DNA of 5,684 nucleotides from a virus (lineage: Duplodnaviria; Heunggongvirae; Uroviricota; Caudoviricetes). Each line of letters starts with the position of its first letter. Position 1 is the stretch's first letter. The stretch is from the IMG/VR virus record IMGVR_UViG_2698536552_000009, one strand, 5' to 3'. Under the pieces are notes generated by a model. That model did not search any database. It had not been told where the DNA came from and saw nothing but the letters and a program-made list of their open reading frames with translations. The position numbers and the translations under genes are program-made. This document shows positions 4,171-4,568 of this stretch, in pieces.

Positions 4171-4347
4171 TGCTTTTCCTCTTCTAAGCGGAAGTGTTTC
4201 AGTTTTTAAAAAGCACACCTGACAGCCTATCTAAACTTAGAAGAGACTTAAAAGGCGGTTTGCCAAGTATGCTTTTTAAAAGCTGAATAGCCCTAGATAA
4301 TTTCTTATAAAGGGCCATTCATAAGGTGAAGAAATTAAAACATCTAA

Positions 4348-4369
4348 AGGATTCAAAAAGGATTCAAAC
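4348..4369. repeat. Tandem direct repeat, 2 x 11 bp (AGGATTCAAAA / AGGATTCAAAC), in the long intergenic region
   Basis: Direct reading of 4348-4358 and 4359-4369; 10 of 11 positions identical. Confidence 0.45.
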
Positions 4370-4393
4370 GAATGAACAAGAGTACTTTTCGAG

Positions 4394-4449
4394 ATGACCT
4401 CTCAGACTAACCTGAAAGGTCATGTAGCGAAAAGCATTGCACCTTTCAG
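4394..4449 (-). promoter_or_regulatory. Three-segment RNA element with mutually exclusive hairpins in the leader of the 321-aa gene (possible attenuator, processing or stability element)
   Basis: Plus-strand 4395-4404 GACCTCTCAG pairs with 4412-4421 CTGAAAGGTC (10 bp; on the minus-strand RNA the single imperfection is a G-U pair, on the plus strand a C-A mismatch). Segment 4412-4420 CTGAAAGGT is also the exact reverse complement of 4441-4449 ACCTTTCAG (9 bp, 20-nt loop). The middle segment can pair with either partner but not both. Confidence 0.3.
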
Positions 4450-4568
4450 AATAACTATCATTGATGTAGAATGATTAATAGTTTAATTCAGGAAGAGTTG
4501 CTCTTCCCTATTACCATCATCTCATGCTTAAGGTTATTTGTCAACAGCTTTTTAACAGATTGGTAACA

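Follow-up and report, generated by a model that had tools for sequence, protein, structure and literature searches.

The IMG/VR virus record IMGVR_UViG_2698536552_000009 (Caudoviricetes), a DNA stretch of 5,684 nucleotides (nt) hereafter referred to as the window, contains a non-coding gap at positions 4171-4568. The best explanation of this gap, with a probability of about 0.6, is that it consists of a promoter and a modular 5' leader RNA of about 340 nt, which is read from the minus strand and gates the next two genes of a phage-like island carried by Escherichia and Salmonella (Table 1). The minus-strand transcript of the gap, 351 nt in length, folds at -112.9 kcal/mol (z = -7.6), and none of 100 shuffled sequences folds as well; the plus-sense fold reaches -95.5 kcal/mol (z = -5.1). 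In agreement with this, the minus-sense fold is the more stable one in all 83 relatives compared for the leader as a whole, in 43 of 46 for its longest hairpin, named G, and in 31 of 35 for an upstream hairpin, named D. A sequence-only reading of the window had proposed a regulated promoter with a structured leader, or a small structured RNA, upstream of the start codon at 4170, and the general idea of this proposal is supported by the strand bias, by the conservation of the promoter, by covariation in hairpin D and by the retention of the G fold in three sequence types. Statements on what the leader does are predictions from its sequence.

In the proposed mechanism, a strong, near-consensus sigma-70 promoter would fire constitutively from a predicted start near position 4509. 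The transcript would carry, in order, a 5' stem-loop (B), probably with a stabilising effect on the RNA, then a hairpin of variable sequence (C), a nearly invariant 20-nt stretch, hairpin D with a stem that varies and always pairs, hairpin F' and the 90-nt hairpin G. In most relatives, the transcript would end at one of two terminator-like hairpins, E or F, giving a default structured RNA of about 200 nt, and read-through alone would reach the genes. The last gate would be translational, with the apex of G pairing with the ribosome-binding site (RBS). In the window, E is absent and F has no U tract, so that transcription should run on. Since these terminators are absent or disabled and the -10 element is weaker, control in the window would rest mainly on the G apex and the RBS, to which, according to the predicted fold, pairing of the RBS with a duplicated 11-mer may contribute as well.

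Promoter and conserved RNA elements

A set of 86 distinct 750-nt regions homologous to the gap was assembled by three routes: searches with the flanking proteins, an exact 18-mer from the conserved RNA block matched in viral contigs, and the promoter sequence matched in metagenome contigs. The promoter is intact in all loci fetched via the RNA block or hairpin D, and the RNA block is nearly invariant in the loci fetched via the promoter. Therefore, the two sets control for each other.

The sequence-only reading could place no convincing sigma-70 -35/-10 pair by eye, but a near-consensus promoter, TTGACA-17-TG-n-GATGAT, matches the consensus hexamers at 10 of 12 positions. The window has two sigma-70 sites with this score, of which only the one in the gap combines a TG motif with an intergenic position, and the score in the relatives is 11 of 12. 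The -10 hexamer among the 86 relatives is CATAAT in 76, GATGAT in eight, including the window, and GAAGAT in two, with A2 and T6 kept in all variants. The spacer and the 24 nt upstream of the promoter are almost invariant. The hexamers, with a spacing inside the 16-18 nt expected of a sigma-70 promoter, are conserved among the relatives, and the activity of the promoter is predicted from them. The block upstream of the -35 element could be an UP element or a regulator site. Additional -10-like hexamers (TTTAAT, TATATA and GGTAAT) are present right after the -10 element in all variants. A 14-nt inverted repeat (13/14), 4528-4541 with 4606-4619, links the -35 element and spacer to the coding sequence of a 25-residue open reading frame (ORF) upstream; it may be a pair of distant operators, or it may form an RNA hairpin when transcripts read through from upstream.

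Hairpin B begins 2-5 nt past the predicted start, and its purine and pyrimidine arms change together in the relatives (GGGAGAG/CUCUCUC, AGGAGA/UCUCCU and GAGAG/CUCUC). The nearly invariant 20-nt stretch is unpaired over its 5' half in the minimum free energy fold and contributes its 3' part to the outer stem of hairpin D. Some relatives carry extra hairpin modules in their leaders, for example L018 at about 6310-6350 and L046; GAGGAUAGUCUUCUAUCC is inserted between the start and hairpin B, and GUGAGGUAUGUUCUAUACCGAACAUUCU before the invariant stretch. These insertions suggest that the leader evolves by gain and loss of whole hairpins.

Hairpin D carries the covariation evidence. With R1, a covariance model of this hairpin, every one of the 86 loci gives a single strong match, on the sense strand (E <= 5.4e-11); the other matches are weak, antisense and at the same site (E about 1e-3). 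The 86 aligned matches comprise 58 distinct sequences, in which the inner helix is 99.1% paired and six base pairs have changed on both sides. None of 500 shuffles reaches these values, and pairing drops to 38-52% in slid controls. In the 9-bp outer helix, pairing is 90% and no pair has changed on both sides. The fold survives very different stems, such as AUGACCUUUCAG/CUGAGAGGUCAU, AUGGCUUAUUUAG/CUAAAUAGGCCAU and AUAGCCUCUC/GAGAGGCUAU. The covariance among relatives that the sequence-only reading had named as a check is found in the inner helix of D, with its six compensatory pairs.

Hairpin G and the ribosome-binding site

Two AT palindromes, TTTTTAAAAA (4203-4212) and TTTTTAAAA (4273-4281), had been reported as separate elements about 70 bp apart. 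Both are present, but they form the cores of the two 27-nt arms of a single inverted repeat, 4198-4224/4261-4287, which folds as hairpin G. The stem can be counted as 21 consecutive base pairs or as 27 with one mismatch, and is long enough for an RNase III substrate (about 20 bp of near-perfect double-stranded RNA), suggesting that RNase III may act on it. In the window, G folds at -39.4 kcal/mol in the minus sense, compared with -28.4 kcal/mol in the plus sense. The relatives show three sequence types of G, named a, b and c, with c' as a sub-variant of c, and every type folds as a hairpin of 78-93 nt at -32 to -43 kcal/mol. The two arms of type b pair together at -30 kcal/mol, whereas with the arms of type a or c they reach just -8 to -13 kcal/mol; types a and c are related to each other. 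The types were assessed by duplex-energy matrices and shuffles, since MAFFT does not align the three of them in register.

The apex of G is complementary to the ribosome-binding region, and the complementarity changes with the type: the apex/RBS pairs are CUCUUCUAAG/CUUAGAAGAG, CUUCUAAGUG/CACUUAGAGG and UUCACCUCU/AGAGGUGAA. Duplexes between apex and RBS of the same type have energies of -13 to -18 kcal/mol, which are matched by 1-37 of 1000 apex shuffles. In all 12 leaders scanned over their whole length of 270-420 nt, with all types covered, the apex is the best anti-RBS position, the second-best sites lying at -9 to -11.5 kcal/mol. The apex type equals the RBS type in all 82 relatives compared. 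The gene downstream of the leader occurs in two versions with 26% identity, and the RBS type tracks the type of hairpin G, not the version of the gene. Because the apex is the best complement of the RBS and changes with it, we infer that their pairing serves as a translational gate.

Transcription termination would provide an earlier gate in most relatives. An intrinsic terminator, E, is found in 58 of the 86 relatives (GCCCUAAU-cAUG-AUUAGGGC followed by UUUCUUU, with a GC-rich 8-bp stem); the terminator scan picks it up in L001, and it ends 182-258 nt (median 198) from the predicted start. The window has no E, and no intrinsic terminator is found between 4050 and 4750. The junction where E resides in the relatives is occupied in the window by the tandem 11-mer described in the sequence-only reading. 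This repeat is real (AAAGGATTCAA, 2.1 copies, 4346-4368, 100% identical), but its occurrence in one of the 86 relatives argues against a functional element. Hairpin F, with the stem GCCCU...AGGGC, is followed in 72 of 82 relatives by a T-rich tail (TTTT or longer), in one by CTTTT and in nine, including the window, by TATTCAG. In these nine, the U tract of F has given way to UAUUCA, which pairs with an inserted UGAAU, and so F' in the window is a plain stable hairpin.

Several points weigh against the gated-leader model. A fully formed G of about 33 bp leaves a linker of 9 nt, which is probably too short for the RBS to reach the apex, and so the two could pair only if G were kinked at its 4-nt bulge, partly melted or cleaved in the stem. 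Standard folding leaves the RBS mostly free, and in the minimum free energy fold of the window the RBS pairs with the window-specific 11-mer duplication, not with the G apex. The promoter and the terminators are predictions rather than mapped RNA ends. The loci were fetched by exact match to conserved stretches, which makes the fetched stretch invariant by construction and leaves divergent relatives unsampled. The variation is mosaic, recombination having shuffled a small number of haplotypes, and so only about 5-7 compensatory changes in D and 3-4 in G can be counted as independent. Finally, the downstream proteins have no assigned function, and thus no biological purpose is assigned to the leader.

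Alternative readings and known systems

The alternative that survives best, though it is on the whole unlikely and overlaps with the gated-leader model, is that the leader supplies an RNA acting in trans. In one version, the RNA from the promoter to E would be a small RNA of about 200 nt with the 20-nt stretch as its seed for targets elsewhere. In the other, G would be excised and block the RBS in resident or incoming copies, and types a, b and c would be specificity ("immunity") classes by analogy with the P1/P7 c4 and P4 CI RNAs. The near-consensus promoter with an intrinsic terminator about 198 nt downstream in the 58 relatives is consistent with such an RNA, as are the invariance of GAAAGGUGCAAUGCUUUUCG beside a hairpin with a freely varying stem and the nature of the island, a small integrative element resembling a satellite. 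The apex and RBS types are fully concordant over three types, independently of the gene type, and concordance of apex and target is the pattern known for the specificity of P1 versus P7 c4. However, the apex adjoins the RBS, and the concordance could partly reflect linkage. Furthermore, no Rfam family, including C4, is matched at E-values up to 1-5, the leader has neither an identified target nor known processing sites, and no discrete small RNA is predicted in the window because terminator E is missing there.

The comparisons with known systems are drawn from general knowledge, with no test of those systems. The c4 RNA of P1/P7 and the CI RNA of P4 are co-transcribed antisense "immunity" RNAs. 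Like the leader, each is a structured RNA upstream of its target in the same transcript under a constitutive promoter, with loops complementary to the downstream RBS and with loop and target varying in discrete types. Premature termination within the leader, known from P4, is a further parallel, as is the host element, a small integrative, satellite-like unit. In contrast, the leader matches the Rfam C4 family neither in sequence nor in structure, and has one long 90-nt hairpin with a single apical complement, whereas c4 and CI are multi-loop RNAs with two target sites. The leader has one feature of the c4/CI type, a loop that complements the downstream RBS in the same transcript and covaries with it between types, while processing and action in trans are conjectural here. 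A bolder, rather improbable extension of this analogy would make the leader an RNA-only immunity or specificity system, not homologous to c4 and CI, of a satellite-like island with its own tape-measure and Dit-like tail genes, in which the RNA of about 200 nt carries a 20-nt seed, the G apex is a type-specific antisense to the RBS, types a, b and c are heteroimmune classes, and release occurs by read-through and/or RNase III upon arrival of a helper phage or an inducing signal.

Processive antitermination is a doubtful alternative. Hairpin D and its invariant flank would be an RNA site comparable to lambda nut or HK022 put, or the promoter would be of the lambda pR' type and serve a Q-like factor, and the terminators E, F and 3179-3144 would be read through only upon activation of the island. 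Between the strong, constitutive-looking promoter and the gene lie as many as three terminator-like hairpins (B with a U-rich tail in some relatives, E and F), a conserved structured RNA separates the promoter from the terminators, and a further terminator-like hairpin precedes the tape-measure gene. The -10-like hexamers after the -10 element (TTTAAT, TATATA and GGTAAT), candidates for the pause element of a pR'-type unit, and the very basic nature of a 69-residue protein encoded downstream also fit this idea. On the other hand, no Q, N or other antiterminator family is found among the island proteins with Pfam, PHROGs, NCBIfam and PADLOC, no Rfam family is matched, a by-eye resemblance to boxA needs an indel and is absent in the window, and antitermination would be unnecessary for the window variant, which lacks E and the U tract of F. 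Consistently, no Q-family gene is detected near the promoter with Pfam, PHROG and NCBIfam profiles in the 101-residue and 73-residue ORFs and the other island proteins, one masked upstream ORF being left out, and the profile scans return no informative family in the island, whether antiterminator, defence or other.

The late unit of lambda consists of pR', the 6S RNA and tR', and the small RNA StxS of Stx phages is made likewise. The likeness to the leader lies in a strong sigma-70 promoter ahead of structural or late genes and a default transcript terminated after about 200 nt, as predicted for the 58 of 86 relatives with a terminator 182-258 nt from the predicted start. Unlike the lambda unit, the window has no terminator, and downstream there are just two small genes, ended by another terminator. 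Leader hairpins processed by RNase III control translation in the lambda N leader and at the early processing sites of T7. Hairpin G resembles them in having a double-stranded stem of at least 20 bp directly upstream of the RBS, and its cleavage would part the inhibitory apex from the message; it shares no sequence similarity with them, and cleavage of G is a conjecture. In leaders that sequester the RBS, such as the fold-back of the IS10 transposase mRNA, an upstream pyrimidine-rich stretch complements the RBS as it does here. The leader differs in that the complement is located in the apical loop of a very long hairpin of which the RBS is not a part.

That the palindromes (B, G and the T5A5 cores) act as DNA, being repressor operators or recombinase sites, is very unlikely. 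B lies directly after the -10 element, a possible operator position, the promoter spacer and upstream block are invariant, the 14-nt inverted repeat joins the promoter and the 25-residue ORF, and the island encodes a helix-turn-helix protein and two serine recombinases. However, mismatches become G-U pairs on the minus-sense RNA only, and G is more stable in sense than in antisense orientation for type a (-36.8 versus -28.0 kcal/mol) and type b (-32.3 versus -18.3 kcal/mol), although type c is symmetric (-30.8 versus -30.1 kcal/mol) and the strand test is silent for it. Moreover, the pairing is conserved while the sequence is replaced, the reverse of the pattern of a protein-binding site. The strand bias together with this conservation of pairing argues for an RNA structure rather than for protein-binding DNA palindromes.

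Hardly tenable is the model of the sequence-only reading, in which the segment 4412-4421 chooses between 4395-4404 and 4441-4449 as in a riboswitch or attenuator. Both helices are possible in the window: 4394-4405 pairs with 4412-4423 at 11 of 12 positions as DNA and at 12 of 12 as minus-sense RNA, with one U-G pair, and 4412-4420 pairs with 4441-4449 at nine of nine. The nearly invariant 20-nt stretch contains most of the third segment (4441-4449). During transcription, the upstream helix would be the first to form (-15.1 kcal/mol until the 3' arm is synthesised), and about 86% of the cells (86.5%) are still pairable across the relatives. However, shuffles do equally well, with 263 of 500 attaining this value, about half of the sequences have lost two of the nine pairs, and the helix 4449-4441/4420-4412 shows no covariation, so that a conserved switch of mutually exclusive hairpins is not upheld. 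Hairpin variants such as AUGGCUUAUUUAG and AUGGCCUCUUA have an altered middle segment but the same upstream segment. The equilibrium probability of the alternative helix in the window is about 0, its best minus-strand fold (-20.0 kcal/mol) being 7 kcal/mol worse than that with D (-27.1 kcal/mol). Neither helix is coupled to a terminator or to the RBS: no U tract follows D, and the RBS is 200 nt downstream. According to these fold energies, the alternative helix could form solely transiently, on the nascent chain. It is regarded as a by-product, since the invariant GAAAGG resembles the 3' arm GAGAGG and can pair with the same partner by chance.

Four further candidates were rejected: a ToxIN-like type III toxin-antitoxin system (no array of repeats of about 36 nt, the sole tandem repeat being the two copies of the 11-mer in the window, and no PADLOC match), a retron non-coding RNA (no reverse transcriptase downstream), a type I toxin-antitoxin system around the 25-residue peptide (the promoter faces away from it, with no antisense overlap) and an rrn or lambda boxA (a likeness that requires an indel and is not seen in the window). 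A search of Rfam 15 with the window and the long-form leader of L001, relaxed to E-values up to 1-5, finds no family match, only miRNA and snoRNA models at 10-25 bits against gathering scores of 33-140, and a tRNA and tmRNA search finds none. A literature search with conserved sequence strings gives no match, and a keyword search on the island type gives nothing relevant.

Because the homology test against C4 failed and a Q gene is lacking, the leader is placed outside the named families; it is a real, conserved and apparently undescribed example of the class "promoter plus structured regulatory leader". It is carried by about 9% of complete E. coli genomes, and by Salmonella, in an island with hardly any protein of known function. 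No other part of this island is as well conserved or as clearly structured, and the leader hence offers a route to how the island is switched on. If the pairing of apex and RBS is functional, the leader would represent a new, easily testable family of co-transcribed antisense RNAs or translational operators with natural specificity variants. The promoter and the terminated RNA of about 200 nt in the relatives are unannotated in the three annotated copies examined, which come from three E. coli genomes. Two annotations are to be corrected: the "321-aa gene" is two genes, and the label "transposase" of the 236-residue family is unsupported.

The island, its genes and feature coordinates

Table 1. 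Features of the window and copies of the island; positions of features are those of the window.
Feature	Position	Strand	Remarks
Nearly invariant block	4545-4568	-	TGTTACCAATCTGTTAAAAAGCTG; upstream of -35; CTGTT repeated at about one helical turn
Sigma-70 promoter	4544-4516	-	-35 TTGACA 4544-4539; 17-nt spacer; TG 4524-4523; -10 GATGAT 4521-4516
5'-terminal hairpin B	4508-4490	-	GGGAAGAG-caa-CUCUUCCU, 8 bp
Variable module C	4489-4449	-	predicted hairpin, 4 + 8 bp; other sequences in relatives
Nearly invariant 20-nt stretch	4447-4428	-	GAAAGGUGCAAUGCUUUUCG; conservation from promoter-fetched set
Hairpin D	4436-4383	-	outer helix 4436-4428/4391-4383, 9 bp; inner helix 4423-4412/4405-4394, 12 bp; loop GUUAGU
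Tandem 11-bp duplication	4346-4368	-	minus sense UUGAAUCCUUU x 2; unique to the window among 86 relatives
Hairpin F'	4321-4284	-	UGAAUGGCCCU...AGGGCUAUUCA, 11 + 4 bp; counterpart of the terminator-like hairpin F of relatives
Hairpin G, 90 nt	4287-4198	-	21 consecutive bp (4281-4261/4224-4204) plus outer UUCAG/CUGAA
G apex	4245-4236	-	CUCUUCUAAG; 10/10 complementary to the ribosome-binding region
Ribosome-binding region	4188-4178	-	CUUAGAAGAGG; start codon AUG 4170-4168
25-residue hydrophobic ORF	4569-4646	-	MTLVILWMTLGLFVGCWVGNTVNKN; upstream boundary of the gap, which it adjoins directly
Gene of coiled-coil protein of about 236 residues	about 4170-3460	-	by homology; internal boundary inferred, masked sequence
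Gene of very basic protein of about 69 residues	about 3414-3205	-	by homology; internal boundary inferred, masked sequence
Terminator-like hairpin	3179-3144	-	15 bp + UUUUU; between the 69-residue gene and the tape-measure gene
Tape-measure protein ORF	935-3106	-	PF20155 and several PHROG tape-measure families
Dit-like baseplate gene	34-778	-	after the tape measure; phrog_3721, PF21821
Island copies	L005 14321-25485; L019 11793-24791; L101 9903-21240; L102 ~1060-11756

The minus strand carries every gene of the window, several blocks of which are N-masked. The gap is the longest non-coding stretch; the sequence-only reading called it the only long one, and smaller gaps lie at 779-934 and 3107-3204. 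No small ORF within the gap is kept in the relatives on either strand. The single gene of 321 residues assumed to start at 4170 is an ORF artefact of the N-masked blocks: every unmasked relative has two genes there, encoding the 236-residue and the 69-residue proteins, and the window's own copies are partly masked. In E. coli and Salmonella, the 236-residue family forms over 3000 clusters at 90% identity. Its NCBI name, "transposase", finds no support in any profile library (Pfam, PHROGs, NCBIfam and PADLOC), and the same four libraries yield no match for the 236-residue, 69-residue, 101-residue and 73-residue proteins. An AlphaFold2 model of the 236-residue protein, with a predicted local distance difference test (pLDDT) score of 71, consists mostly of long, coiled-coil-like helices and has no significant fold match in BFVD.

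The terminator-like hairpin upstream of the tape-measure gene would end the transcription unit there, suggesting that the 69-residue and 236-residue genes form a unit of their own. It follows that direct control of the tail genes by the leader, a possibility raised by the sequence-only reading, is unlikely, because this strong hairpin intervenes. The tape-measure ORF is about 30% identical to the tape measures of Felix-O1-like phages. The Dit-like gene is split between frames in the window, where 626-778 corresponds to profile positions 1-51 and 34-345 to positions 173-258, and is intact in the relatives (257-269 residues); the frame break is either a pseudogene or a sequencing error. On the other side of the gap, the 25-residue ORF overlaps the stop codon of the 101-residue gene (TAATG) and is conserved at the protein level in the relatives, although many of them have replaced the upstream gene.

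The window DNA matches 471 of 5426 complete E. coli genomes (about 9%), and it shows no similarity to any of 50,697 phage records in near and distant search modes; a protein search of the 101-residue ORF against phages likewise gives no match. E. coli strains bearing the island include MSB1_9I, 2012EL-2448 and OkiPb01692. The leader and island also occur in Salmonella, one contig encoding a protein that NCBI lists under Salmonella. In three annotated E. coli genomes and this contig, the island is compact and integrative, with a size of 10.7-12 kb, and is inserted between wrbA and ymdF, between tonB and yciI, or within a DUF72 gene. The gene order is a large serine recombinase, the Dit-like gene, the tape measure, the 69-residue gene, the 236-residue gene and the gap, followed by the 25-residue ORF, several small ORFs, the helix-turn-helix protein of 325 residues, a Dam methylase and a small resolvase-type recombinase, the orientation of which varies between strains. 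The helix-turn-helix and Dam genes are of the replication type, and genes for head, tube or sheath are absent from the island, which may be a phage satellite or remnant equipped with tail-length genes of its own.

Two further repeats lie in the downstream part of the window. Tandem repeats of about 23 bp (GATGCCAAACTGTGATCG...), in 2.3-2.8 copies, occupy window positions 1-77, where the convergent serine-recombinase gene ends in the relatives. A second repeated intergenic element, CUACGUGAA-(about 35-45 nt)-UUCACGUAGCUCACGCUUAA, is found on the minus strand at 859-930, between the stop of the tape-measure ORF (935) and the start of the Dit-like gene (778), and also at L001 2490-2566 and at L002 2781-2797 and 5026-5042. 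It folds into a 9-bp stem with a 35-nt loop and lies directly upstream of the RBS of the tape-measure gene, the Dit-like gene or both. Of 101 loci, 61 have one or two copies of its 17-nt core per island; the window has one copy, against a chance expectation of 0. This element could be a promoter or a regulatory module specific to the tail genes of the island.

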